Shown here: positions 5,314 through 26,486 of the stretch, piece after piece
Layout: the number at the start of each line of letters is the position of its first letter
How positions within the stretch are numbered: position 1 is the first letter of the stretch
Source: a virus
Taxonomy: Duplodnaviria > Heunggongvirae > Uroviricota > Caudoviricetes
DNA: 27,714 nt
Reading direction: 5' to 3' (one strand)
Virus record (IMG/VR): IMGVR_UViG_2778261035_000014
Notes under the pieces: generated by a model
Seen by the model: only the letters and a program-made list of their open reading frames with translations
Told to the model about the DNA's origin: nothing
Database searches by the model: none
Position numbers and translations under genes: made by a program

Positions 5314-7482
5314 TTAGTCCGCAATCCCAAGGATGAGGTTATTCTGCGCCTGGTTGTTTTCCCTTATCTTGGTATCAATCAGACCGTTAATCGCACCATC
5401 ATTAACATTCACCTCAAGAGGCGCAAACTTGATCTCAGCTTCGCCAGTGACCGCAACAGGAATCGGCTGTCGTTGAACTATGCTATCAATTGTCGGAACC
5501 GTGAACGTTGGTTGCTGGGGTGTCAGATAGTTCAGGCCAGGAACATTCAACGCTAGTGCTGGATCGTTATACGCCATGCCTGAGCCGATATTGCTCGGAG
5601 CGGAACTATCCAGCCACGGGTAAATCTGCTTAAGCGTCTGACCGATGCTACGTGGATCAAAGCCGGTCTTTTCCTTAATCCAATCGGCAGCACCATTTGA
5701 GGAGTCATCTACCACGCTCGTATAAACCGCATCCGGCAATGTTGCGCCTTTCTTGAGTTCTTCACCGACTCGACCAGCGAAGGAAAGAATGTTGGTGGTT
5801 AGCTCACCAAGAGCAACGCCGAGGGCATCGGAAATTGGGATCAGTCCAGTCATATTCTGACGTAGAGTGTCAGTATTGGCAGCGTACTGCCCCAGGCCTT
5901 CAACAAACGAGGCTGAGAAGTGATCCGCAAGACTTGTTTGTACTCGGTTGTACTCAGCACCCAAAGCTGCCAGCTTATCAAGGTTGGCCTGCTGTGCATC
6001 AGATAGGGTCCATCCTTCAGAAGCGAGTTGATGCATACGGGCAATAACTTCATCACCTTCCCCACTGATACCCGCCATCAAGACCGATCCGTCATTGATC
6101 GCTTCCAAAAAATGACGCATGGAATTCTCTGTCCAGCCGAATTGTTTACCCAACTGCCGCACATAGGTAACGAAGGTCCCCATGTCCAATTTCTGAAGCT
6201 CGCCAATCACTTTTTGTGCTGTTCGCTGGTTGGTTTTGCTAAGAACTGCATTCACCAGATCGGCAAGTTCACCACCTCCGCTGAATGTTGTTACCCCTTG
6301 CTTGTTAGTTTTAAAGGAACCGGTATTCAGTAGCTCACCTGCTTTCTCGAAGTAATCCTTATTCATGGACGCATACTTATCTACGGTCAGGTCGTACCCT
6401 GTACGCTTCTGTACAACGTCATGGATAGCATTAAATTCAAGCTGGCTAATATCATACTGCCTTAATTGCTGCGCCTCTCTGGAGCGTTCAAGACTCCCCT
6501 GGAGGGTCTGACCAACACGAGCAACTCCCATTGAACCAATCAGGGATCCCCCTGCAATTACACCAGTGGCAGCGAGGCCACCATAACCACGTTCGCTACG
6601 TTCACGTCTCAAACGTTGAGCATTAACGCGCCCTGCTCGCTCTACTTTAGCCCGATCCTTAACCATCTGGCGGTTAATACGTGCCTGCCGCCTGGTTTCC
6701 AGAGTCGCTTTAGCAAGTTCATGGCGCATTTCTGCGATGGTATAACGCTGCTCGGAGTATCCCTTGGTAGCCTCTTTGATTGCCTGCACCGCTTTCATTT
6801 TGTCAGCCAGGCTGGCACCTTCGATATGGCTGATCGTTAAACTGGCGCGGCGTAGGGTGTCGTATGCAGTGCTCTGGCGCTTGAGGCTGGCTTCTTTCTC
6901 ACGCTGGCGCTTCTCTTCCAGGGCCATCGCCTTTTTGGTGGCTGCGATGTCAGCAGCAACAGCGCCGTGACCACGGTTCATTGCGTCAGTCTGACGGGAA
7001 ACAAGACCAGGATCGTAATGTTGACCGCCCATGTTAGGGTTGTAGGTCATCGCTCGTGATCTGGCTGCGGCCTGCACTTTTGCGGATATATTGGCTAAAC
7101 GGGCGTTTTGTCTCCGGATCTGTTCACTATCTGCCAATTGTTGAGCCTGCCCTCTGGCGTTAAGAGCCTGCATTTTCCGGGCGTGAGCCTCTTCCTGTTT
7201 TGCGATCTTTGCCTGGGCTTGGGCCTGGCGTTGTTGCTCTAGCGAAAGCTTTTGAGCCATTTTGAGGCGCTGTGTTTGAGCGCGGGCTGCTTCAAGGGCT
7301 GCTTTACCCTCACTCTGGGCGGTTCGCTTCTGAGCTTGCTCCAGCGCTTTAGCAGGTTTGGTAGTTAATTGCTGAAGTGACAGAATTTTCTTCTTCGCTG
7401 CTTCGTAACTAGAGCGGGAAATTTCCCAGCTTACGATATTGACGGTGCTCGTCACTATCTTGTTGGTTGTTCCACTACTCAT
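5314..7482 (-). CDS. Long coiled-coil protein with a glycine-rich hydrophobic segment (tape-measure-like, function unresolved)
   Basis: About 722 aa from the ATG at 7482 (MSSGTTNK...), which overlaps the upstream stop in ATGAGTAG. N-terminus is Ala/Gln/Lys/Arg-rich and helical. Central segment GYGGLAATGVIAGGSLIGSMGVARVG. Analogous to 15469-17310. Confidence 0.6.
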   Translation of the reverse strand: MSSGTTNKIVTSTVNIVSWEISRSSYEAAKKKILSLQQLTTKPAKALEQAQKRTAQSEGKAALEAARAQTQRLKMAQKLSLEQQRQAQAQAKIAKQEEAHARKMQALNARGQAQQLADSEQIRRQNARLANISAKVQAAARSRAMTYNPNMGGQHYDPGLVSRQTDAMNRGHGAVAADIAATKKAMALEEKRQREKEASLKRQSTAYDTLRRASLTISHIEGASLADKMKAVQAIKEATKGYSEQRYTIAEMRHELAKATLETRRQARINRQMVKDRAKVERAGRVNAQRLRRERSERGYGGLAATGVIAGGSLIGSMGVARVGQTLQGSLERSREAQQLRQYDISQLEFNAIHDVVQKRTGYDLTVDKYASMNKDYFEKAGELLNTGSFKTNKQGVTTFSGGGELADLVNAVLSKTNQRTAQKVIGELQKLDMGTFVTYVRQLGKQFGWTENSMRHFLEAINDGSVLMAGISGEGDEVIARMHQLASEGWTLSDAQQANLDKLAALGAEYNRVQTSLADHFSASFVEGLGQYAANTDTLRQNMTGLIPISDALGVALGELTTNILSFAGRVGEELKKGATLPDAVYTSVVDDSSNGAADWIKEKTGFDPRSIGQTLKQIYPWLDSSAPSNIGSGMAYNDPALALNVPGLNYLTPQQPTFTVPTIDSIVQRQPIPVAVTGEAEIKFAPLEVNVNDGAINGLIDTKIRENNQAQNNLILGIAD

Positions 7483-13977: not shown

Positions 13978-14064
13978 CTCTAAGCACCGGAAACATAAAG
14001 ATTTTTTAGCTGATTTTAAGCGTAAAAAATCGCTGGAGCGGGCGAAGGGAATCGAGGAAACCCA
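13978..14064. repeat. Inter-element att junction: 16-bp motif (13978-13993) and 22-bp core (14043-14064)
   Basis: Same two motifs as at 786-832 but in the opposite order and with 49 nt between them. Confidence 0.6.
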
Positions 14065-14140: not shown

Positions 14141-15361
14141 GTGTCGATCAAGAGCCAAGCATACTTATTTAAAAGAAAAGATGGGATCTGGATGTTTCAG
14201 ATTTTTGTTCCTAAATACTTACGTCATCTTTACCCTTATAAGTTGTGGAGAAAAAGCACATCTACACGAGATCTGAATGAGGCGAGAAGATTCAGAAACC
14301 ATCTATTATTAGAATGGGAGGAACTAAAGCGAAAACATAATCCTGATAACCCCGAAAGGAGGTTACAAAAAGCTATTGAATCCTTACATTCAGAGGCAAG
14401 GGCCAATAAAAACACGCAAAGAGCCGTAAAACGCGGTTATGCACCGCCTTCCCTGTGCCTAATACGTGACGAATACGCCGAATGCTACAGAGAGCGTCGT
14501 TCATACTCAACACTACAGAAATCAGCAAGGGCCGTTGAGCTATTTTTACAAAGCATTCAGAAAGATGATATTCATATTGAGAAAATAGGCAGACGGCTTG
14601 TAACAGTATTCTTAGATGACCAGAAGCAACGAGGAGCAGCCGATCAATCTCGTCAAAACTGGCTTACATGCTTAGGATCGCTCTATGAATTTGCTAAACG
14701 CCGTTATGACGGAATACCAGACAATAACCCTTTTCACGGTCATAACCTCGAAGCACGTCGCACAATCGAGAGTTATCAACCGTTTACACCTGAACAAATG
14801 CAAAAGCTACTTGATGCAGCGGAGCCGGAGATCAGAAATATTATTTTAATGGGCTTGTTTTCAGGATGCAGATTAGACGAACTGGCAAGCCTGAAAAAGT
14901 CAGAGGTTGTAACTGTGGAAGGAATACGCTGTTTTTATATCAGCAAGAGTAAGACTAAAGCAGGGATCAGACACGTTCCGATACATTCGAGACTATCGAT
15001 TATTGTCGATGAATATTTAAATCATAATTATGGTGAATATTTGTTCCCTCACTCGAACAAAGTAAAAAGAATCGACGGCAAGAAAGGCCCGTTCTATTCT
15101 CAAGCATTCTCACGTTTACGTCGTAACGTCTTGCCAATCGCTACAGATAGACAATGCTTTCACAGCTTGCGCGGGATGTTTATCACTTGTCTTGATCGTG
15201 CCGGAGTGCCTGAACAGCGGATCGGAGCCATTACCGGACATACAGAGCAGAGAGCTAAAACAGAAGCCTTTCGCACCTACTCACAAGGGGCAAGCATTCC
15301 AGAATTAGCTGAATATGTAGAATTAGTAAAATATGAATTAAATATTGATTTTAAGGCGTAA
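14141..15361 (+). CDS. int: Tyrosine-type site-specific integrase (second, diverged copy)
   Basis: 406 aa with a GTG start and AGAGGA Shine-Dalgarno. Same catalytic motifs (SGCRLDE, HSLRGMF, GHTEQ...RTYS). N-terminus differs from integrase 1. Confidence 0.9.
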   Translation: MSIKSQAYLFKRKDGIWMFQIFVPKYLRHLYPYKLWRKSTSTRDLNEARRFRNHLLLEWEELKRKHNPDNPERRLQKAIESLHSEARANKNTQRAVKRGYAPPSLCLIRDEYAECYRERRSYSTLQKSARAVELFLQSIQKDDIHIEKIGRRLVTVFLDDQKQRGAADQSRQNWLTCLGSLYEFAKRRYDGIPDNNPFHGHNLEARRTIESYQPFTPEQMQKLLDAAEPEIRNIILMGLFSGCRLDELASLKKSEVVTVEGIRCFYISKSKTKAGIRHVPIHSRLSIIVDEYLNHNYGEYLFPHSNKVKRIDGKKGPFYSQAFSRLRRNVLPIATDRQCFHSLRGMFITCLDRAGVPEQRIGAITGHTEQRAKTEAFRTYSQGASIPELAEYVELVKYELNIDFKA

Positions 15362-15468
15362 AACAACGCCATAAACGTAATAAAAAGGCTTCCTTGTAAT
15401 GGGAGCCTCTTATATGCTTAATTCCTTACAAGAGTGTTTTAGATTGTGATTAAACATTCTCTTTATCA

Positions 15469-17310
15469 TTAACTTGGTGCTTGCCCAGACAGAGCCGCCA
15501 ACGTGAAACTACGTTCAAAATCTTGTTGGATACTTCCCACTTTGTAATCGAGGTATGATCCAAGCTGACTACCATCAGGGGCGATATTCACATCCACCTT
15601 GCTTTCCGGCACGTTTACGACGATGTTCGGTGCATACGTCATAGATGGGGTAGTGTTCAGATCACGGCTAACGTTCTGTTTCAGGGATTGCACGTTATCA
15701 GATGGGCTTGCATAGTTCTGAATTGCAGTTCCGCCAGTCGTTGGCTTGTCTTCCGTGCCAGGAATAGGATCTAAGCCTAAAGCACTACGACCCCAATCAA
15801 CCATACCACCTACAAACGAGTCCTTATAATACATACCGGACGAATCAAGGTTTTCATGCTTGTTCTCTGGGTTGATATTTTGGTATGCAGCAGTAAGCCA
15901 CGATACAGCACCAGCAAAGGCGCTCATCATTTCAGCCGTTGAGCTTCCAAGTTCTTTAAACAGAGGATTCAAATCTTTCAACATTTGCGCCCACTCTTCA
16001 CCAGCTTGAGCATCGAACTCTTCACCAAATCCAGTCATGATAGCTTTCTTACTACCTTCCCATGCCATATTCATATTTGCCTGTACCGCTTGCAGACGTT
16101 CGGCAGCGTCCAGATCCGCTTGTGTATAGGTGGCATTGGCCTTTTGCATCTTAACGATGGTCTTGTTTAGCTCTTCACCATTACGACTAAAGGCACCACG
16201 GAAATATTGCAAATCATTGCCCAGGTCTTCAAGGATGTGCCCGATTTCTTGATCTGATAATCCACGGCGTTCACCTTCTTTCACTACAGCGCCCAGGAAA
16301 CCTAAAGGATCAGTCTGGAAACCTTTAACCTGTTCAGGTGACCAGCCATATTTATTAAGGATGTTATCGACGGCACCATTACCGCCAGCCCAGCGACCTT
16401 TCTTAGCGTCCCATTTGGTATTCCCTACGGATTCACCTAAACGTTCCTGAACGTCTTTAAGGTTGTCTTGACGTTGGTCTACGGAACTATCAACACCGTG
16501 TTCTAAGCCGTACTGGTTGAGAGCTAACAGGGCGTTAGTGTTTACGTTGACAGCCTTTGCCTTGCGGTTAGTGTCTGTGATCTTGCTTGCCTGATCGGTT
16601 ACGGTATTGAATATCGCAGCACCGCCGAAAGTAGCAGCAGTGAGAGCGGCACCGCCTACCATTGCACCGACACCAGCGCCCATATGACCACCTTTAAGCT
16701 GTTTAGCCATATGTGGGTATTTACCGCCATCAGCCGCCACCTGGCGAGCTTTTACAGCAGCCGCACGGCGTTCTAACGTGATACGATCACGGATCAGGTG
16801 ATTCATCTTAGCCTGACTTATAGCGCCTTTCTCATACGCTGCCGTTTGTGCTTTGATGTATTGCAATGTTTTGTAGTACTGGGCGCTGTTCATACCGTCG
16901 CCCATACGCCCTTTTTTGATGCCTTCAAGCTGGCGGAAAGCTTGCTGGCGTTTAATCTCTGCCTTCTCTGCTATTGTCGCTTTAGCGCGGATCTGTTTAT
17001 CGGCAGCTATAGCGGCTTTAGCCTTCGCTTTAGCTTCTGCCTTTGCCACCTTATCAGCGTTCTTCTTGTCTGTTTGAGCTTGCTTGTCTGACGCTTTAAC
17101 ATCAGCTTTAGCCTGTGCAGCTTTACGAGCCTTTACCAGATCATGAGCATCGTCTATAGCTTTTTTAGCCTTCTTCCCTTTCAATGTTGGATTGGTCAGG
17201 TTTTCCATTTCTTTTTGAAATTTCTTCCCTGCATCGCGTGCTTTCTGCAATGATGCAAAATCAACTTTAAATACAACCTTGTTTGTTAAGGTTGAGATGT
17301 TTAAATCCAT
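15469..17310 (-). CDS. Long coiled-coil protein with glycine-rich hydrophobic segment (tape-measure-like, function unresolved)
   Basis: 613 aa with an AAGGA Shine-Dalgarno. TolA-like KAKAEAKAKAKAAIAADKQIRAK helix, then GGHMGAGVGAMVGGAALTAATFGGAAIF. Lies downstream of the capsid and HTH genes, unlike element 1. Confidence 0.6.
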   Translation of the reverse strand: MDLNISTLTNKVVFKVDFASLQKARDAGKKFQKEMENLTNPTLKGKKAKKAIDDAHDLVKARKAAQAKADVKASDKQAQTDKKNADKVAKAEAKAKAKAAIAADKQIRAKATIAEKAEIKRQQAFRQLEGIKKGRMGDGMNSAQYYKTLQYIKAQTAAYEKGAISQAKMNHLIRDRITLERRAAAVKARQVAADGGKYPHMAKQLKGGHMGAGVGAMVGGAALTAATFGGAAIFNTVTDQASKITDTNRKAKAVNVNTNALLALNQYGLEHGVDSSVDQRQDNLKDVQERLGESVGNTKWDAKKGRWAGGNGAVDNILNKYGWSPEQVKGFQTDPLGFLGAVVKEGERRGLSDQEIGHILEDLGNDLQYFRGAFSRNGEELNKTIVKMQKANATYTQADLDAAERLQAVQANMNMAWEGSKKAIMTGFGEEFDAQAGEEWAQMLKDLNPLFKELGSSTAEMMSAFAGAVSWLTAAYQNINPENKHENLDSSGMYYKDSFVGGMVDWGRSALGLDPIPGTEDKPTTGGTAIQNYASPSDNVQSLKQNVSRDLNTTPSMTYAPNIVVNVPESKVDVNIAPDGSQLGSYLDYKVGSIQQDFERSFTLAALSGQAPS

Positions 17311-17328
17311 AATATTTTCCTTTACCTT

Positions 17329-17544
17329 TTATTTATTCTGTTTTGATACGTAATATTGCACTGCTTCCATAGCGGAACAGCCTGTAGCAAAAATTCTTTG
17401 ACGTACAGCGGTATTAGAGATCCCTAAAAACTTACATACTTGTGAGATATTTAGAATATCTTCCGGTAAGGTGGAAACAGCTTTCAGGATTTCAACGGGA
17501 TTGTTATTTTGTGTGTTCATGGTTTTCTCACTTTTATTCGACAT
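17329..17544 (-). CDS. Small helix-turn-helix DNA-binding protein
   Basis: 63-71 aa. HTH-like ILNISQVCKFLGISNTAVRQRI. C-terminus homologous to the 2938-3150 product. Confidence 0.55.
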   Translation of the reverse strand: MSNKSEKTMNTQNNNPVEILKAVSTLPEDILNISQVCKFLGISNTAVRQRIFATGCSAMEAVQYYVSKQNK

Positions 17545-17664
17545 TAGAAAACAAAAAGGGCAAAGAGATCCGTTACTGTATTTGCTTTACAGGTTAGTTA
17601 ATCCCTTTTGCCCTTATTGCCTGTTTTATTTCCAGTCGCACAGGAAACGACTATTAACGCTTTA

Positions 17665-18693
17665 TTACGCTACTGTGATCTGTACAGTGAAGCCTACGCC
17701 GTGGTTTACAACCATCTGGCTATTCTCGGTAACTACGTTTACAGCGTCGTTACGTGCTGGGCTAAATGCATAGCTGTAATATTCAGCCGATCCAGAGTTC
17801 AGAAGGTCGAACGTTGAAGAAGGAGCGCCGAAAATGTTCTGATAGACGTTAGAGCCTTTAGCGAACTTCGGAACAGCCACCGCATCAGAAGTCATATGAG
17901 CCAGCAGCAGCGGATCGGTAACTTTGATCAGATCAATGTTAGTGCCTGGAATAGTGAAGGTAGTCACACCTGGCAGCAGGGAGCGCACACTATAAACGAT
18001 GTTTGCGTCATCGGTAGGGCTTGCATACTGGAACGCGTTAACCATGCCAGCACTGTAACGGATAGCGTTAAATGCAGCAGGTTTACAGAATACAACGATA
18101 CGCTCTACAGCAGCCGCCTGGCTTTGTGCTTTAGTAATAACGTCTGTATGCATCTGATCGAATTGCTGGAACACCATAGAAGGCGTGGTGCTTGATGCGT
18201 CGATGGTTGCAGTCAGCGGAACAGCACTAAACAGATCGCCCCACTGAATCAGCACATCGTCAGTTTTAGGGGTGTAGGTGCGACCACTAAACAGGGAAGC
18301 AGCCAGTACGCTTTCTTTAGTACGCTGGAAAGCAATGTGGTGCTTAGCAACATATTCCGCGTAGATATCTGTCAGAGTCTCTTCAACGGTAGCGCCTGGT
18401 TTACGTTTGCCTTGAACGTCTTGCGGCTTAATCATATCTTCACGCAGGAAGTAGGGGATCTCTACTAAAAATTCTTTACCCTGTTCACGTTTAGTCACGT
18501 TATGTTCAGAAGAGAAACGAGAGGTTTCTTTGTTGAACAGAGATTCGTTAGTTTCCACCAGTTGGCTAACAGCCACTTTATGAGAACTCACACCTACCGG
18601 ATCAGTGAAGTCCAGAGTAGTTAACAGGAAGTTGCGAGAGTCGTGCAGACTAAACAGCGGAGCCAGATCGACGGATTCATTACCAATAATCAT
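17665..18693 (-). CDS. Major capsid protein, lambda gpE-like (second copy)
   Basis: 342 aa with an AAGGA Shine-Dalgarno. Paralogous to the 3264-4280 product and preceded by the small partner gene. Confidence 0.7.
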   Translation of the reverse strand: MIIGNESVDLAPLFSLHDSRNFLLTTLDFTDPVGVSSHKVAVSQLVETNESLFNKETSRFSSEHNVTKREQGKEFLVEIPYFLREDMIKPQDVQGKRKPGATVEETLTDIYAEYVAKHHIAFQRTKESVLAASLFSGRTYTPKTDDVLIQWGDLFSAVPLTATIDASSTTPSMVFQQFDQMHTDVITKAQSQAAAVERIVVFCKPAAFNAIRYSAGMVNAFQYASPTDDANIVYSVRSLLPGVTTFTIPGTNIDLIKVTDPLLLAHMTSDAVAVPKFAKGSNVYQNIFGAPSSTFDLLNSGSAEYYSYAFSPARNDAVNVVTENSQMVVNHGVGFTVQITVA

Positions 18694-18711
18694 TATGTTT
18701 ATTCCTTTATA

Positions 18712-19083
18712 TTAAGATGTGAATACAGTGTTAAAACCAGCCATCTGGAAGCCTTTAGCAGCCAGAGCAGCAATAGCGGCTTCTTTAATAGCGCCTTCAA
18801 CATTCAGAGCATCAGACTTGATGCAAACCAGTCCGGCATTGCTACGCAGCACGTTAACGGTTTTAGCGTCGCCAGCGGATACCGCATCAGACACAACCAC
18901 AAGAACATCGCCGCCGCTTACATATTCAGCGCCGTTACTGGTAATCAGATCGCCGCATTCCACATCAACCGCCAGATCAACGGTAAAAGATTGCACACAA
19001 CCGAACTCATCAGTTGCATAGCTCACGATATCGGTAAATGATTTGCGAACTGGAAACAGATCGCTCATATTAATAATAGCCAT
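18712..19083 (-). CDS. Putative head decoration protein (gpD-like by size and synteny)
   Basis: 123 aa, 18 nt upstream of the capsid gene. Positional and size analogue of 4299-4643. Confidence 0.45.
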   Translation of the reverse strand: MAIINMSDLFPVRKSFTDIVSYATDEFGCVQSFTVDLAVDVECGDLITSNGAEYVSGGDVLVVVSDAVSAGDAKTVNVLRSNAGLVCIKSDALNVEGAIKEAAIAALAAKGFQMAGFNTVFTS

Positions 19084-21937: not shown

Positions 21938-22603
21938 TTAAAATGGTATTGAGTCATAGATTTCACTTTCTTTTCTCAGGGCTATCATCAGTGCATTAAA
22001 AGCATCATCTTCAAGAATTATCCTCTTCGAGGTCAGTGCACGTTTTATAAAATTTTCTGTTTCTTCTTGCATAGGCTTTTGGCTGTCTATGGAAATAAGC
22101 CATGTAAAAAGATCAGATTGTTCCGTGATTTCTGCCTGTGTTTCCTGCTCAATAGAGTGTGTCGCTTCTAACGGTTCCTGTGTTTCAGGTGCAGGCTGTT
22201 CTACGTTTACAGAGGTTTTTACGTCTTCCGGTGGTGTGATGTGTGCATCTGTAAATGGTAATGCTTTATAGAGTGATGTTTGCCCGTCCCGTGCCTCTAC
22301 AGAAAGAACACCCATATCAATAAACATATTTATAATATTACGCACCTGACGATCACTAACCATTCCAATATTAGCTAATGTTTTTTGATTGGCGTAACAT
22401 TCTTGCCCTTGTTCATTGAACCCAGCTACGTAACTGTAGATTTCAACGGCTGGAAGTGTCGCGGTGTATTCCTTACCTGACGGTGAGAACCACTTTTTAA
22501 ACATCTTCAGCCATTGTTCAACTACTACATATGTTTGTTTACTATCTTTCTTATTGAGGCATTGCGCTTTTGCTTCGGCAATTGTTTTGGTGTTTTGGTT
22601 CAT
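21938..22603 (-). CDS. Replication-initiator-like or winged-helix DNA-binding protein
   Basis: 221 aa. Segment ECYANQKTLANIGMVSDRQVRNIINMFIDMGVLSV. Acidic C-terminal half. AAGGAGG Shine-Dalgarno lies inside the upstream ribbon-helix-helix ORF. Confidence 0.5.
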   Translation of the reverse strand: MNQNTKTIAEAKAQCLNKKDSKQTYVVVEQWLKMFKKWFSPSGKEYTATLPAVEIYSYVAGFNEQGQECYANQKTLANIGMVSDRQVRNIINMFIDMGVLSVEARDGQTSLYKALPFTDAHITPPEDVKTSVNVEQPAPETQEPLEATHSIEQETQAEITEQSDLFTWLISIDSQKPMQEETENFIKRALTSKRIILEDDAFNALMIALRKESEIYDSIPF

Positions 22604-22727
22604 TTAGTTCCTCCTTTGTAAGGACTGTAATTAGTAATTCATTAACAAGTTTTGGAATTGATTTCCCTTCTGCCTTTGCACGATTTAACAACGCGTTATA
22701 AGTTGCAGAATCAAAATTAATATTCAT
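22551..22727 (-). CDS. Ribbon-helix-helix DNA-binding protein (58 aa, absent from the ORF track)
   Basis: Hand-translated: MNINFDSATYNALLNRAKAEGKSIPKLVNELLITVLTKEELNEPKHQNNCRSKSAMPQ. GGAGAA Shine-Dalgarno. Homologous to the 9364-9567 product. Overlaps the rep-like start in another frame. Confidence 0.5.
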   Translation of the reverse strand: MNINFDSATYNALLNRAKAEGKSIPKLVNELLITVLTKEELNEPKHQNNCRSKSAMPQ

Positions 22728-22750: not shown

Positions 22751-22933
22751 TTATTCTTTCTCTGCTTCTGCCTTACGCAGTTCATCAATAATTTTTAGTG
22801 CATCGTCAAAGCATTTTTCACGCTCTGGATAACCACAGCGCCGCGCTGTGTTCCTGTTCATCCTTACTTGATGTCGTGTTAGCTCACCTTTTTTAAATGC
22901 CTCTACGACGTGTTCCGGTGTATACCATTTCAT
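22751..22933 (-). CDS. Small basic protein (60 aa), first gene of the leftward operon
   Basis: ATG at 22933 with AAGGAG Shine-Dalgarno 7 nt upstream (MKWYTPEHVVEAFKK...). Confidence 0.5.
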   Translation of the reverse strand: MKWYTPEHVVEAFKKGELTRHQVRMNRNTARRCGYPEREKCFDDALKIIDELRKAEAEKE

Positions 22934-23917
22934 AAAAAACTCCTTATTTAGATAAAAGAAAAACACACCTTGCAGCCTGACGGCTCAAAGTGCAGTGTTC
23001 TGTGATTTGATTATTTAGATGGAGAGAGATGTTTCTCCCCTCCCTACTTACAATACTACATAACGGCGGCTTTGTCAACCCTCTTTTATAAAAAATTTGA
23101 TCATTTTCAATTTCTTATAATTTTTCTTAGCTTTTTGTGCTGCCTACTCTGGTACAATTCTTCCCTGTTGCCTAAAACGCTCTCAATCGCACTCTGACGG
23201 GGTTTTGATAAAAACAATACATTCCCTTATGTAGAGGTTGTTTATCTCGTCAGAGGCTTATTTAAGGGGCTTATTTTTGATTTATCAGATGATGGAAAGA
23301 TGGTGGATAGATAAATTCTGATTTCAGACATCTTATAAAATACCTGCAAAGTTCTCAGAAGCTCTGTAACGAGCTAATCTATTACCGCTAAGGTGTTTCC
23401 CTTACATTACCCTGTTTAGCTCGCCTACGGCTTGATTTAAGCGGTAGAATCTTATTTAACCTTCAACTACAAAAACCATTCTTTCTTTTTTGTTGTTGGT
23501 TGTTTTGTCATGTTATGCGTTAGCATCCCCAAAGGGTAACGCGACACTAACAACCATTCGCTTACGCTCAGGTTATTGCACAAGTAAATTTCAATCGTTA
23601 GATGGTAGTTAGTTAATTATCGTTCTGCGCACAGCGCAAGACTATTAGCCATACGCAAGCCGTAGGCTATTTGCACATAGTAGATTACATATTCGTTGTG
23701 AGCGGAAAGCGAACATAGATCAGCTAACTACTAACAAAAAACAAAAAACAAAAACTATCTGTTATGACAAGCATCAGTCTAACTTGTGCAAGGTTCTGGC
23801 GAATGCCAATAGATTAAGGGATAGTCGAAGACTCCCTAACGGGTATCCCTATAATTATTCTTTAAAAGATAAAAGAATTTATAAAAGATAGTTTAATTGT
23901 AGTTTAATTATAGTATT

Positions 23918-23969
23918 GTAGGAACTCATTTCCTGGGTAGGTAGGAACTCATTTCCTGGGTAGGTAGGG
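23918..23969. repeat. Tandem direct repeat, 2.3 copies of 23-bp unit gtaggaactcatttcctgggtag
   Basis: Exact copies at 23918-23940 and 23941-23963, then a partial copy; preceded by duplicated agtttaatt. Confidence 0.7.
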
Positions 23970-25092
23970 AAACCGCACTATACACTGGTAAGTGTCTTGC
24001 ACAGAAAAAGGTATCAAAAATGTCTAAAGCCCCTTTAGATAAAAATGATACCTTTATACATGCGCTAATAGCGCGCATAACAATAACCTACTAACAACTA
24101 ACTAACTAAAAAGTAAGAAGATGTTGTTATGATTAGTGTATCGCTCAACGCTCACATCTATCTCTGATCTATAAATTGGTAACTGTCTAACAACAACAAA
24201 CAACTATTACATGCAAAACAGCCTTACGGCTGCATAGAGATGATTGGCTAACCTTCGGTTGCTACGCATAGCCATATCTATGAGAAGATAAAAGAGATTT
24301 AAAGGTTAGTTTGTTGTTGATCTAACCAACATTCGCTATACGCTCATACAATCTACATTACACATTAACTATCAAACTACAATCTAACGATATATAGAAT
24401 CTATATCCACTCATTATCATTCGTGCAATGATCACATTGATAGTTCGCTATACGCTCACCTCAATTATGTGCAATGGCTTTTCAGGCAACGCGTTAGCGT
24501 ATTCTTGCGAATGCCTGATCTCCAAAGCCGGAATTAAACAGCAAGAATATCTCGTGTAAATCGTAGAATATTCATAGTTTATTCCGTGTAATTCCATACT
24601 AAAAAATGCAATGAAAAGTAGCTTCAAAGTGCAATTCTTACTTTCTTCACTTTTACATTATCATCAGCAAAGCCTTATGTAATGCGGCATATAGCGTATC
24701 ACTGCAAAATTGTTGCTCAATAAATGTTCTACCATTTGTTGAACGAATGTTCACTCGTGCACATCTCAAAGAGAATAATCATTTGTCATACAATTCCATA
24801 ATAAGAATTATTATCACTTATAATGCAATACAACCCAGATTCGATACACTTTAGCAAAGTGTATTCTGTAACTTACTGATCTTTATATACTCAGGCATAT
24901 ATAGACCATTTATCGCTATTTATTGGCTATTTTTCATCTGCCGAAAATAAATTTCTTGACAAGACAAATCATTTGTGAACAACTTGCATAAAATAAATTT
25001 ACTTATAAATCAACAAGATATTTCATATTTGTGCCTGCATCAGATCGGGAGGCTTGATCTTTGTGTTCAACGATGGTGACGGACGCACCTAA

Positions 25093-25172
25093 ATTAAATC
25101 GGTTTTAATCGCCTTTAATACCTTTTAATCAGTCTTAATCACCTTTTAATAGCCCTTTAATCACTTTTGATC
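25093..25172. repeat. About eight phased ~10-bp repeats with core TTTAATC
   Basis: ggttttaatc / gcctttaata / ccttttaatc / agtcttaatc / accttttaat / agccctttaatc / acttttgatc. About 10-bp periodicity, ending 100 nt upstream of the recombinase start. Confidence 0.6.
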
Positions 25173-25273
25173 ATTTAGTGCTCTCAACCATAAAACGTAT
25201 CGTGCAACATATTGAAAATGATCGTTTTATGATCAAAACTACTTTCATTGAAACGAATAAGGAGAGTATAAAG

Positions 25274-25852
25274 ATGAAAGGTATTAGCCAAGCCCTCAAG
25301 AATGTAGACGAGGTAAAAACAGTAGCAGCAGAGCTACAGCGCAATAGTAAAACCAACCTGTTTTATTGCTTATGGGTGTTTATGTATGAAAGCGGGTTGC
25401 GTGTCTCTGACGTACTCAAGCTAAAATATCAGGATGTTGAGGGGCAATCTCATTTGAAGATAAAGCAGGAGAAAACCGGAAACGTAGTAAGGCCAAAAGT
25501 TACCCCCGCCATGTTGTCAGTGGTGGCACAACGCAAGGCAGAGCAAACGAAGATGCCTGTAGCTACAGATTTTATTTTCAGTGCTGGCACATTACGCAGT
25601 AAAGGCGAAGCCGTAACCCGTAACACGGTATTCACTGAATTTGGGAAAATGGGACGTAGAGCCGGATTCTCTAATGTGGGATGCCATACGCCACGTAAAA
25701 GTCGGGGCCGTGTGATGTTTGATGCAGGGGTAGCTATAGAGACAATAGCCCATTTCCTGGGACAGACAGATCCGCGCTCTACTATGTATTACATCGGGTA
25801 TGGTCAGGATGTGCAGGACGATTTAGCAGAGGAGTTTTCTTTAGAATGGTGA
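25274..25852 (+). CDS. Small tyrosine recombinase, FimB/FimE-like (catalytic domain only, 192 aa)
   Basis: AAGGAG Shine-Dalgarno 9 nt upstream. Motifs ESGLRVSDV (Arg), HTPRKSRG (His-x-x-Arg), and C-terminal LGQTDPRSTMYY (Tyr). Size and motif spacing resemble my recollection of FimB. Stop overlaps the next start in ATGGTGA. Confidence 0.65.
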   Translation: MKGISQALKNVDEVKTVAAELQRNSKTNLFYCLWVFMYESGLRVSDVLKLKYQDVEGQSHLKIKQEKTGNVVRPKVTPAMLSVVAQRKAEQTKMPVATDFIFSAGTLRSKGEAVTRNTVFTEFGKMGRRAGFSNVGCHTPRKSRGRVMFDAGVAIETIAHFLGQTDPRSTMYYIGYGQDVQDDLAEEFSLEW

Positions 25853-26061
25853 TCCAAATTAAAAGCTTATTTGTGCTGACGTTGGCGCTATTGCCTGTCC
25901 TATCGAATGCCGGACAGATAACAATGGTCAACCCACAGGAAGAACAGACGGAGAATGGAAAAACGCTGTGCACGTATCAGAACAGCAATTATCTGTTCAC
26001 TTACGTAACTAAGGGGAAATGCCCTTATACAAAAACATTTGACACTTCCGCCAAAGAATAA
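25846..26061 (+). CDS. Small secreted protein with two conserved Cys (paralog of 12214-12429)
   Basis: 71 aa with signal peptide MVIQIKSLFVLTLALLPVLSNA. Conserved blocks GQITMVNPQEE, LCTYQNSNYLFT, CPYTKTFDT. Confidence 0.6.
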   Translation: MVIQIKSLFVLTLALLPVLSNAGQITMVNPQEEQTENGKTLCTYQNSNYLFTYVTKGKCPYTKTFDTSAKE

Positions 26062-26066
26062 CGATT

Positions 26067-26486
26067 TTAACGGGATTTTGGATAAATGCTGTTTCTGCAA
26101 TTAATGCAATACCAACTCGCGGAGTATTGACCAACGGCACGCGAAAAAACCATGTGTGTTTGCACCTTATCAACTTCAAAGCATTTGGGACAGTAGGCTG
26201 TTTCATCGCCTTCTTTCCAGTAAAGTCCATCTTTGAAAGTGAAGGTGTGCTTATCCTTTAGCTGATCTTCAAGCTGCTTATTTTTCTGTTCAGCCTCAAA
26301 AAGAAGTGCTTGGGTTGTGATTACTTCCATCTTCACACTTGCAAGTTCGCTCATGAGGTTAGCAAGCTCAAGTTTAAGCGTTGCTTTATCAAGTTCGCCG
26401 CCATCATCAGCGAGCTTCTTTGCAATACCTACAGCTTTGTCAATGATACCTACAGCCGCCGCTGTACTTGCCAACACTCCAGACAT
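26067..26486 (-). CDS. Coiled-coil protein with C-terminal zinc ribbon (cargo, unknown function)
   Basis: 139 aa. Central heptad-like region, then CPKC-(x24)-CINC. Last gene of the leftward three-gene operon. Confidence 0.55.
   Translation of the reverse strand: MSGVLASTAAAVGIIDKAVGIAKKLADDGGELDKATLKLELANLMSELASVKMEVITTQALLFEAEQKNKQLEDQLKDKHTFTFKDGLYWKEGDETAYCPKCFEVDKVQTHMVFSRAVGQYSASWYCINCRNSIYPKSR

Follow-up and report, generated by a model that had tools for sequence, protein, structure and literature searches.

A catalytic-domain-only tyrosine recombinase with a GATC-motif leader in the small-recombinase slot of an Escherichia coli satellite-like island

Introduction

Lone recombinases of plasmids and phage-plasmids act at a site beside their own gene, and both serine and tyrosine recombinases are classical plasmid resolution enzymes. 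Dam-linked regulation has been described for the P1 cre promoters. To our knowledge, a core-binding domain is present in every tyrosine resolution enzyme characterised so far (Cre, XerC/D/S/H, ResD, TnpI), and the characterised catalytic-only enzymes that we know of (FimB/FimE and relatives) are invertases.

A gene of this catalytic-only kind, here called rec192, lies in a 27,714-nucleotide stretch of DNA (the window; IMG/VR record IMGVR_UViG_2778261035_000014), which represents E. coli chromosome with two tandem integrated islands. A sequence-only reading had described a FimB-like small recombinase preceded by phased repeats and had suggested an invertible, phase-variable control element for the cargo or the island. 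Overall, this flip-switch interpretation is partly supported by the analysis presented here: the gene and its surroundings are as described, whereas a switch was not encountered in any assembly. As a tentative alternative we consider a recombinase acting in its own leader on replicated copies of the island.

Results

The rec192 gene and its product

An open reading frame of 224 aa (25178–25852, + strand) encloses rec192. RefSeq sets the start at ATG 25274, giving a protein of 192 aa (WP_000676395.1), and an AAGGAG ribosome-binding site is found at 25259, nine bases 5' of this ATG. The Pfam model Phage_integrase (PF00589) matches residues 44–206 of the 224-aa frame, i.e. nearly the whole 192-aa protein, with an E value of 1.2e-15 (58.2 bits; gathering score 27.1). 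According to this match and the AF2 model (pLDDT 93), only about 30 residues lie N-terminal to the catalytic domain, so that the catalytic-domain-only tyrosine recombinase of 192 aa assumed earlier is confirmed. The top PDB fold matches returned by Foldseek are the catalytic domains of XerA (E 7.7e-9; TM 0.74), lambda Int and XerH. The best PHROG is phrog_216 (1.2e-27), which carries the generic label 'integrase'.

The catalytic tyrosine is present on alignment (Y173), together with R43, K67, H138 and R141; these residues as well as D46, K142 and T170 are invariant in a 25-sequence family alignment. At the fifth catalytic position, rec192 has Q165 where the LGH motif has its histidine; a few relatives also have Gln, and most have His. 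By fold, profile and catalytic residues rec192 is a member of the tyrosine recombinase superfamily, and sequence and model describe it as an intact, apparently active mini tyrosine recombinase. In NCBIfam it scored above the cut-off of no named family. The Xer models (XerC/XerD/XerA) gave 33–43 bits at cut-offs of 220–335, and the integron integrase models gave 33.6 bits (TIGR02249; cut-off 265) and 15.7 bits (NF011946; cut-off 435). PADLOC, run on rec192, sp71 and the cargo proteins, returned only one weak AbiEi match. WP_000676395 was mentioned in no paper found by literature search, and nothing specific was found in the literature on satellites and small recombinases.

The stop codon of rec192 (TGA 25850–25852) overlaps the start codon of the downstream gene sp71 (ATG 25846; ATGgTGA), as had been noticed before. 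The N-terminus of sp71 reads, by eye, as a signal peptide, and the protein matches phrog_4641 (function unknown) at 9.6e-8. An sp71 ORF lies 3' of the recombinase gene in nearly all enterobacterial homologue loci; the pairing extends from E. coli as far as Pectobacterium, whose recombinase is 34% identical.

Relatives of rec192

An exhaustive HMMER search with rec192 yielded 832 cluster representatives at E<=1e-3, mostly of 180–195 aa. Islands of this family in Salmonella, Klebsiella, Buttiauxella, Kluyvera and Enterobacter encode homologues of 88–90% identity, and homologues of 34–51% identity are encoded in Winslowiella, Kosakonia and Pectobacterium; the search for related loci was seeded with an alignment of 6 sequences. 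Relatives of 26–34% identity are present in 126 phage records, 91 of which are Streptococcus prophages. In prophage IPP51, the one record inspected, the relative is found in the middle of the genome, with the late activator gene on one side and the terminase genes on the other. Plasmid records with relatives number 488, chiefly from Enterococcus, Bacillus and Clostridium, and include plasmids of 8–16 kb. Two small non-mobilizable plasmids, of 8.2 kb and 9.6 kb, were inspected; their listings covered 6/9 and 11/13 annotated genes, respectively, and contained no recombinase gene besides the relative. No functional characterisation of the Gram-positive recombinases of about 180 aa was found in the literature searched. 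Judged by sequence, rec192 is of a known enzyme kind and belongs to a large uncharacterised clade of recombinases of about 185 aa, whose members occur on Gram-positive plasmids, in Streptococcus prophages and in enterobacterial satellite-like islands.

The island and its recombinase slot

The second of the two islands, element 2, extends from about position 14000 to the end of the window and in strain CE0026a reaches tRNA-Gly beside actS. It encodes an integrase (14141–15361), a 613-aa protein matching 'tape measure' PHROGs, a capsid-E-like protein and an O/DnaD-like initiator (21938–22603). This gene set, as read from the sequence, is that of a satellite-like island. The leftward replication operon, for which the promoter scan gave TTGACA 23078 / TATTGT 23050, ends at 22933 and is followed by a 2.3-kb ORF-free stretch and then by rec192, which confirms the position of the gene between an AT-rich ORF-free region and the cargo. 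Element 1 was searched by tblastn and contains no small recombinase, in agreement with the earlier statement that it has no such gene. The features around rec192 are compiled in Table 1.

Table 1. Coordinates of rec192, sp71 and the sequence features upstream of them (window numbering).
Feature	Position	Strand	Source
Inverted P2 copy, GATCATTTTCAA (12 nt exact, 18 nt at 89%)	23099..23110	-	
Left boundary of recombinase/cargo module, GTTGAACGA (junction 24744/24745)	24738..24746	+	sister-island similarity ends here
Conserved palindrome GATACACTTTAGCAAAGTGTATT inside recombinase module	24843..24865	+	cross-locus comparison
Conserved AAAATAAATTTCTTGACA, -35-like hexamer with A/T-rich DNA upstream (function inferred)	24945..24961	+	window, L004, L005, L015-L019
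Terminator-like hairpin AGATCGGGAGGCTTGATCT and T-rich tail, directly 5' of array	25042..25060	+	terminator/promoter scan
Array of eight phased TTAAT-type units, mean period 10.3 bp, ending in conserved TTTTGATCA	25094..25173	+	TRF, shuffles, alignment
P1, TTTTGATCA, first leader GATC motif, containing -35-like TTGATC	25165..25173	+	all nine close loci, six genera
P2, TTGAAAATGATC, second leader GATC motif	25212..25223	+	kept in all close loci
P3, TATGATCAAAAC, third GATC motif, TGATCA palindromic core	25228..25239	+	upstream comparison, close loci
Palindrome TTTCATTGAAA, then AAGGAG RBS	25243..25264	+	close-locus comparison
rec192, 192-aa tyrosine recombinase, catalytic domain only	25274..25852	+	Pfam PF00589, phrog_216, AF2 model
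sp71, 71-aa ORF, signal-peptide-like N-terminus	25846..26061	+	ORF list; phrog_4641

Similarity between the window and the sister islands with a serine-type recombinase stops exactly at the module boundary, within TTTGTTGAAC/GA, and 241 genomes share only 24587–24744 with the window. The boundary motif opens the module also in Salmonella, Klebsiella, Buttiauxella and strain A35 (locus L027). Three recombinases were found to occupy this slot, namely a serine recombinase of 183 aa in 294 E. coli genomes, rec192 in 36–37 genomes and, in strain A35, a tyrosine recombinase of 186 aa that is 24% identical to rec192. Thus, the variable cargo region starts, at one and the same junction, with any of three non-homologous small recombinases. 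On the right side, all variants converge again at AACCATAAAGCCCC, about 440 bp before tRNA-Gly.

The core end block is present in 709 genomes, and 294 + 37 have a slot recombinase. In about half of the sister islands, none of the recombinase types looked for was present, and the slot is empty of a recombinase in the sampled loci L003, L033, L035 and L036. Hence, the function is recurrent but dispensable. Cargo lacking the rec192 module was encountered only as IS-truncated remnants or with another recombinase.

Conserved motifs in the leader

The 260 nt upstream of the closely related recombinases were compared. The motifs P1–P3 are kept across six genera, but the array is not. Judging from this pattern, the GATC/TGATCA cluster formed by P1–P3 is a candidate functional site, in which a crossover core (inverted binding elements around a 6–8 bp spacer) was not definable. 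TTGATC within P1 is termed -35-like by its sequence; the consensus promoter scan did not call it. The leader (25160–25262; 103 nt) is found by blastn in exactly one copy per genome in 37 genomes. Of the palindrome preceding the ribosome-binding site, the TTTC-N3-GAAA arms are retained with a variable centre in all close loci, and the ATACAC/GTGTAT arms of the palindrome further upstream are kept in the Klebsiella and Salmonella loci. The family with 34% identical recombinases (L011/L022) shows an analogous TTTTTGATCAAGAATTGATCAC before the RBS and, further 5', GATTAAAC units (two to three, with a 10-bp phase). A GATC cluster (five GATC in 130 bp) likewise precedes the unrelated recombinase gene of strain A35.

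The phased repeat array

About eight repeats with a 10-bp phase had been reported just upstream of the gene, and eight units were indeed identified. Exact TTAAT starts at 25105, 25115, 25125, 25135, 25146 and 25157, flanked by the variants TAAAT at 25095 and TTGAT at 25167, resulting in spacings of 10, 10, 10, 10, 11, 11 and 10 bp. None of 2000 local dinucleotide shuffles had more than 5 exact TTAAT within 80 nt, against six observed, and TRF detected the array with a period of 21 (score 84). Across the window the heptamer TTTAATC is not enriched (9 observed, 6.65 expected); what stands out is the phased clustering at this site. The P1 motif recurs in the units in degenerate form, the closest unit being TTTTAATCA at 25124 with one base different.

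E. coli loci (window, L009) have the array, and Klebsiella (L005) has a degenerate version in which the phase is still kept. The array is absent 5' of the 88–90% identical recombinases of Salmonella, Buttiauxella, Kluyvera and Enterobacter, in which unrelated GC-rich sequence takes its position. Consequently it is no required part of the system and, with the GATC motifs kept everywhere, it represents a lineage-specific elaboration. Its helical period, its position abutting the -35-like TTGATC and the conservation of phase rather than sequence fit an intrinsically bent or multi-site upstream element.

The ORF-free region

Positions 22967–25273 were confirmed to be free of ORFs. Neither a credible Rfam match (gathering and E<=5; window and ORF-free region) nor a tRNA was obtained. 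Part or all of the stretch is present, unannotated, in 742/5426 complete E. coli genomes. It contains origin-like DNA, in which an AT-rich stretch is combined with 11-bp repeats and with perfect tandem repeats of 23 bp at 23850–23968, next to the O/DnaD-like initiator gene; the repeat part 23903–23974 is conserved even in the distant L003. The region is a mosaic: the blocks 22945–23974 and 24586–24744 are common to the family, 23975–24585 is restricted to a subgroup, and close relatives differ by modules of 120–600 bp that start after CCGCACTATAC. Further constituents are five copies of TTCGCTnnACGCTCA, repeated ATTGCAC motifs and many short hairpins.

Two haplotype groups (5 vs 5 sequences) differ in one of the hairpins (23514–23541) by three compensatory base-pair changes, and on the + strand G-U pairs are retained in a long closing stem (U/G-rich : A/C-rich). 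Fold z-scores in the region are -3.2 for the + strand and -1.9 for the - strand. These are hints, from two or three independent lineages only, of a structured + strand RNA or of single-strand DNA hairpins. The corresponding position in the L022-type islands is taken by another, GC-rich cluster, made up of five hairpins (z -6.2) and without an Rfam match; one of these hairpins is degraded in L011.

Orientation of the DNA around rec192

A search for inverted repeats revealed the pair TTGAAAATGATC/GATCATTTTCAA, which spans 2.09 kb of the ORF-free region. The left copy is situated 21 bp 5' of the -35 hexamer of the replication-operon promoter, which points leftward. Both copies also occur in Klebsiella L005 and E. 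coli L024. However, the serine-type islands L007 and L008 have the left copy without the right one, and L009, L015, L017 and L018 have the right copy without the left one, among them L009 with a recombinase 100% identical to rec192. The two inverted copies thus belong to different modules: repeats flanking a segment, as had been looked for, do exist, but they do not travel together. An analogous inverted pair (23 nt, 78%) flanks 820 bp beside the 34%-identical recombinase in the Pectobacterium-type loci (L011–L014 and L022). Within 24587–26100, no conserved inverted pair is common to E. coli, Klebsiella and Kluyvera.

An inverted orientation was seen in 0/36 complete E. coli genomes (across 24587–26066), in 0/5 L022-type loci and in 0/6 metagenome contigs. 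The metagenome scan (7 contigs, all collinear) used a pattern that is the reverse complement of the normal junction and is itself no inversion test; the pattern for an inverted junction including the outside flank is AAAAAATTTGATCATTTTCAATATGTTGCACGATAC. Viral contigs searched for the normal junction gave 0 matches. When the window was compared by blastn with 20 related loci, every aligned piece was on the plus strand and only modular indels were seen, and the serine-type module is collinear in 294/294 genomes. As all assemblies examined, those of other genera included, show one orientation, frequent inversion of a nearby segment is unlikely and the proposed phase-variable switch is not borne out at this level; rare switching may occur.

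Discussion

Proposed role of rec192

We propose, with a probability of roughly 35%, that rec192 serves as an accessory recombinase whose site lies in the leader of its own gene and which resolves replicated copies of the island, as on plasmids. It would fill the small-recombinase slot of E. coli/enterobacterial satellite-like islands after the origin-like region and would act on a single site, the P1–P3 cluster (25165–25239). Use of this site would monomerise or otherwise process replicated or excised island copies. The single leader site, the origin-like neighbour, the replacement by a serine recombinase of resolvase size and the plasmid relatives suggest multimer resolution of the plasmid type. 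The GATC cluster in the leader suggests coupling to replication via Dam/SeqA; expression or site use could be linked in this way to Dam methylation. The array may be an E. coli/Klebsiella-specific element, intrinsically bent or a platform for binding at several sites, that modulates the promoter or the site's architecture rather than forming the arms of an invertible switch.

Gene integrity, the slot, the conservation pattern and the lack of inversions in assemblies are the established parts of this proposal, from which we infer the identity of the site, the resolution reaction, the coupling to Dam and the role of the array. The lack of a core-binding domain, the fact that about half of the islands have none of the recombinase types looked for, and the tight link to a presumably secreted protein of 71 aa speak against resolution.

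Alternative explanations

If rec192 were instead a DNA invertase using 23099–23110 and 25212–25223, the flipped segment would include the array as well as the origin-like repeats and the candidate rec promoter, and rec-sp71 and/or the replication operon would be switched in this way. The architecture in common with FimB/FimE, the presence of the inverted pair with its right copy between candidate promoter and gene, the retention of this pair in Klebsiella L005 although most of the DNA between differs, and the analogous pair in the Pectobacterium-type loci argue for it. We nevertheless regard it as unlikely, given the uniform orientation reported above, the left copy alone in serine-type islands and the missing left copy beside an identical recombinase in L009. 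Moreover, the shared stretch comprises 12–18 nt of an otherwise unique 103-nt leader, and by our own estimate a 12-nt inverted match is expected about 0.3–1 times by chance in 3.2 kb of AT-rich DNA. A further reading, in which rec192 and the conserved hairpin-rich ORF-free segment form one functional unit, is very improbable. The unit would then be either a large invertible, origin-containing non-coding piece that toggles island replication or cargo expression, or a structured RNA or DNA that the domain-poor recombinase requires to choose its site; inverted motifs with GATC border the segment in two island lineages that are unrelated to each other. Action in trans on another replicon (a helper phage) or on a distant chromosomal switch would suit an accessory gene located among cargo, and in Clostridium difficile the switches on which the recombinase RecV acts are distant from the gene that encodes it (PMC2784873). 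The RecV paper (PMC2784873) contains no size or domain data linking it to the rec192 clade, a second leader copy is absent in 37/37 genomes at blastn sensitivity and no candidate target was found; we consider such action most improbable.

The array could also be an iteron array for protein binding, i.e. a ParR/omega-type centromere or an operator for a small ribbon-helix-helix or nucleoid protein, that controls the rec-sp71 promoter and is unrelated to recombination. Eight direct units at a period of 10–11 bp directly 5' of a promoter-like region would suit such a function, as would the conservation of phase but not sequence in Klebsiella, and a 58-aa ORF (22551–22727) appears ribbon-helix-helix-like by eye. 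However, this ORF has no Pfam match and is absent from L009 and L005, both of which retain the array, partition genes are absent, and four genera do without the array. Pfam searches of the small ORFs of the leftward operon, as possible array-binding regulators, gave no matches, and we rate the idea as quite unlikely. It is decidedly doubtful, too, that rec192 captures or exchanges cargo, mobilising the cargo module at the GTTGAAC junction in the manner of an integron integrase or of the integrase of a nested mini-element. The variable region does start exactly at the recombinase module, cargo differs with each recombinase type, and GTTGAACGA opens the module in five genera and in the unrelated type of strain A35. 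Yet the motif is not repeated at the right boundary, where the variants rejoin at AACCATAAAGCCCC, the integron-integrase model scored far under its cut-off and no empty/occupied-site pair was found for the rec-sp71 unit alone. Because both flanks are conserved, ordinary homologous recombination can account for the cargo swaps.

Should resolution at the leader site be the function of rec192, the island family, present in about 1 in 7 E. coli genomes, would have a plasmid-like maintenance step, and a very large uncharacterised clade of mini tyrosine recombinases would receive its first function. A switch, if real, would be a new kind of phase variation on the control region of a mobile element. 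Either outcome corrects the shortcut by which a small tyrosine recombinase is equated with a FimB-like promoter switch.

Comparison with known systems

FimB and FimE resemble rec192 in size (about 200 aa), in consisting of the catalytic domain only, in the R-K-H-R...Y layout and in the position of the gene, which adjoins non-coding DNA with a short inverted motif. The identity to K-12 FimB and FimE is 23% and 27%, respectively, and the models NF007370/NF007371 gave 29.2 and 30.6 bits at cut-offs of 221–222, which is below the Xer models. In contrast to FimB/FimE, rec192 has Gln in place of the LGH histidine, and its locus shows neither 9-bp repeats around a promoter segment of about 300 bp nor orientation polymorphism in assemblies. 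The designation FimB-like hence holds for size and architecture, but not for the sequence family.

The small serine recombinases of the sister islands (resolvase/invertase type) share slot, orientation and junction with rec192 and have a GATC-containing GATCAATAATCAC before the start codon; their fold and chemistry are unrelated to those of rec192, and they score below every NCBIfam cut-off. The 'site-specific recombinase/integrase' proteins of about 180 aa of Streptococcus prophages (LambdaSa2/IPP type) and of Enterococcus/Bacillus/Clostridium plasmids are of the same clade and length as rec192 (26–32% identity) and share phrog_216 with it. They differ from rec192 in their hosts and in having no sp71 partner. 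In the IPP51 record the relative sits among replication and packaging genes.

Resolution modules such as XerS/difSL, XerH/difH, Cre/loxP and TnpI/IRS of Tn4430 differ from rec192 in having an N-terminal core-binding domain and a defined core site, the latter not having been found at rec192. They resemble it in that a lone tyrosine recombinase is encoded, in the case of rec192 with conserved non-coding motifs directly 5' of the gene. Both reside on mobile elements that replicate, as the rec192 island presumably does; the rec192 leader is single copy per genome, and the best structural matches of rec192 are Xer proteins.

The ORF-free region and its repeats

The non-coding DNA that precedes the small-recombinase slot is a conserved, ORF-free region of 1.3–2.2 kb. 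Of 5426 complete E. coli genomes, 742 carry it, none with an annotation. The region is mosaic, and close relatives exchange modules of 120–600 bp, often 3′ of the motif CCGCACTATAC. Features of this region and of the related island loci (L numbers) are collected in the table.

Non-coding features and slot occupants of the window and related island loci
Feature	Location	Remarks
Conserved ORF-free region	window 22967–24744; also L002, L003, L007, L008, L023–L026, L033–L038	
Candidate structured element	window 23470–23770	fold z-score −3.2
Origin-like architecture	window 23850–23968	AT-rich stretch, 11-bp repeat and 23-bp repeat
183-aa serine recombinase	L007 8277–8828; L002 7615–8166; L008 7737–8288	exactly the slot of the 192-aa tyrosine recombinase
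GC-rich cluster of five stem-loops	L022 7395–7615; also L011, about 5400–5620	MFE −107 kcal/mol, z −6.2
Right-boundary non-coding block	L001 18880–19320	about 440 bp before tRNA-Gly, past the window end

The most over-represented word set of the region is a motif of about 15 bp, TTCGCTnnACGCTCA, present in five copies (window 23556, 23698, 24139, 24330 and 24442, the second inverted), and relatives carry repeated (T)ATTGCAC motifs spaced by about 17 bp. Both sets may be protein-binding sites. In the origin-like stretch the 11-bp repeat ATAGTTTAATT is present in 2.5 copies and the 23-bp repeat GTAGGAACTCATTTCCTGGGTAG in 2.2 perfect copies. In L003, which is divergent elsewhere, the 23-bp repeats are 92% conserved and one extra copy is present.

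Candidate structured elements

Within the candidate structured element of the window, the hairpin at 23514–23541 differs between haplotype groups at three base pairs, each changed in a compensatory manner, and a long closing stem (about 23491–23509 paired with 23733–23752) keeps its G-U pairs on the + strand. In the Pectobacterium-type locus L022, the GC-rich cluster is found some 400 nt 5′ of the distant small recombinase, and the 820-bp segment that contains it has inverted double-GATC motifs at its two ends. No Rfam family was matched by the element of the window or by the stem-loop cluster of L022 and L011.

Occupants of the slot and neighbours of the recombinases

The serine recombinase that occupies the slot in sister islands was found in 294 E. 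coli genomes, O104:H4 among them, always in the same orientation; its score falls under all NCBIfam cut-offs. The ORF-free region of the Klebsiella homologue, L005, contains a Dam-family methyltransferase gene (6495–7184), which deserves mention because GATC clusters precede the recombinases.

A 45%-identical recombinase is encoded on a metagenomic contig (L010, 1713–2576) that is phage-like, with small ORFs of T4 type. Ahead of it lies an ORF of 81 aa that has a lipoprotein-like signal peptide, as read by eye, and a short motif, KTLxCT..SNY, resembling the 71-aa signal-peptide-like ORF that overlaps the recombinase stop in the window (weak similarity, E 0.04).

Island boundaries and island type

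On its right side, the variable cargo is bounded by a non-coding block that begins at AACCATAAAGCCCCGTTGG and is conserved in all island variants; this block presumably contains attR arm sites, and possibly more. On the left, three draft-genome contigs from Salmonella and Enterobacter (L004, 1–30; L016, 1–125; L019, 1) end 550–850 bp upstream of the recombinase, immediately left of the GTTGAAC junction that opens the recombinase/cargo module (window 24744|24745). The probable cause is that a genome has several related islands and their conserved core is collapsed; orientation heterogeneity is a less likely one.

The island (window 14141–19083) encodes an integrase and a capsid-E-like protein, together with a 613-aa protein that hits ‘tape measure’ PHROGs (6e-67) and a 123-aa neighbour. 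A literature search found no paper on its satellite family, and the island looks like a member of a family apart from the known P4, PICI, cfPICI and PLE types.
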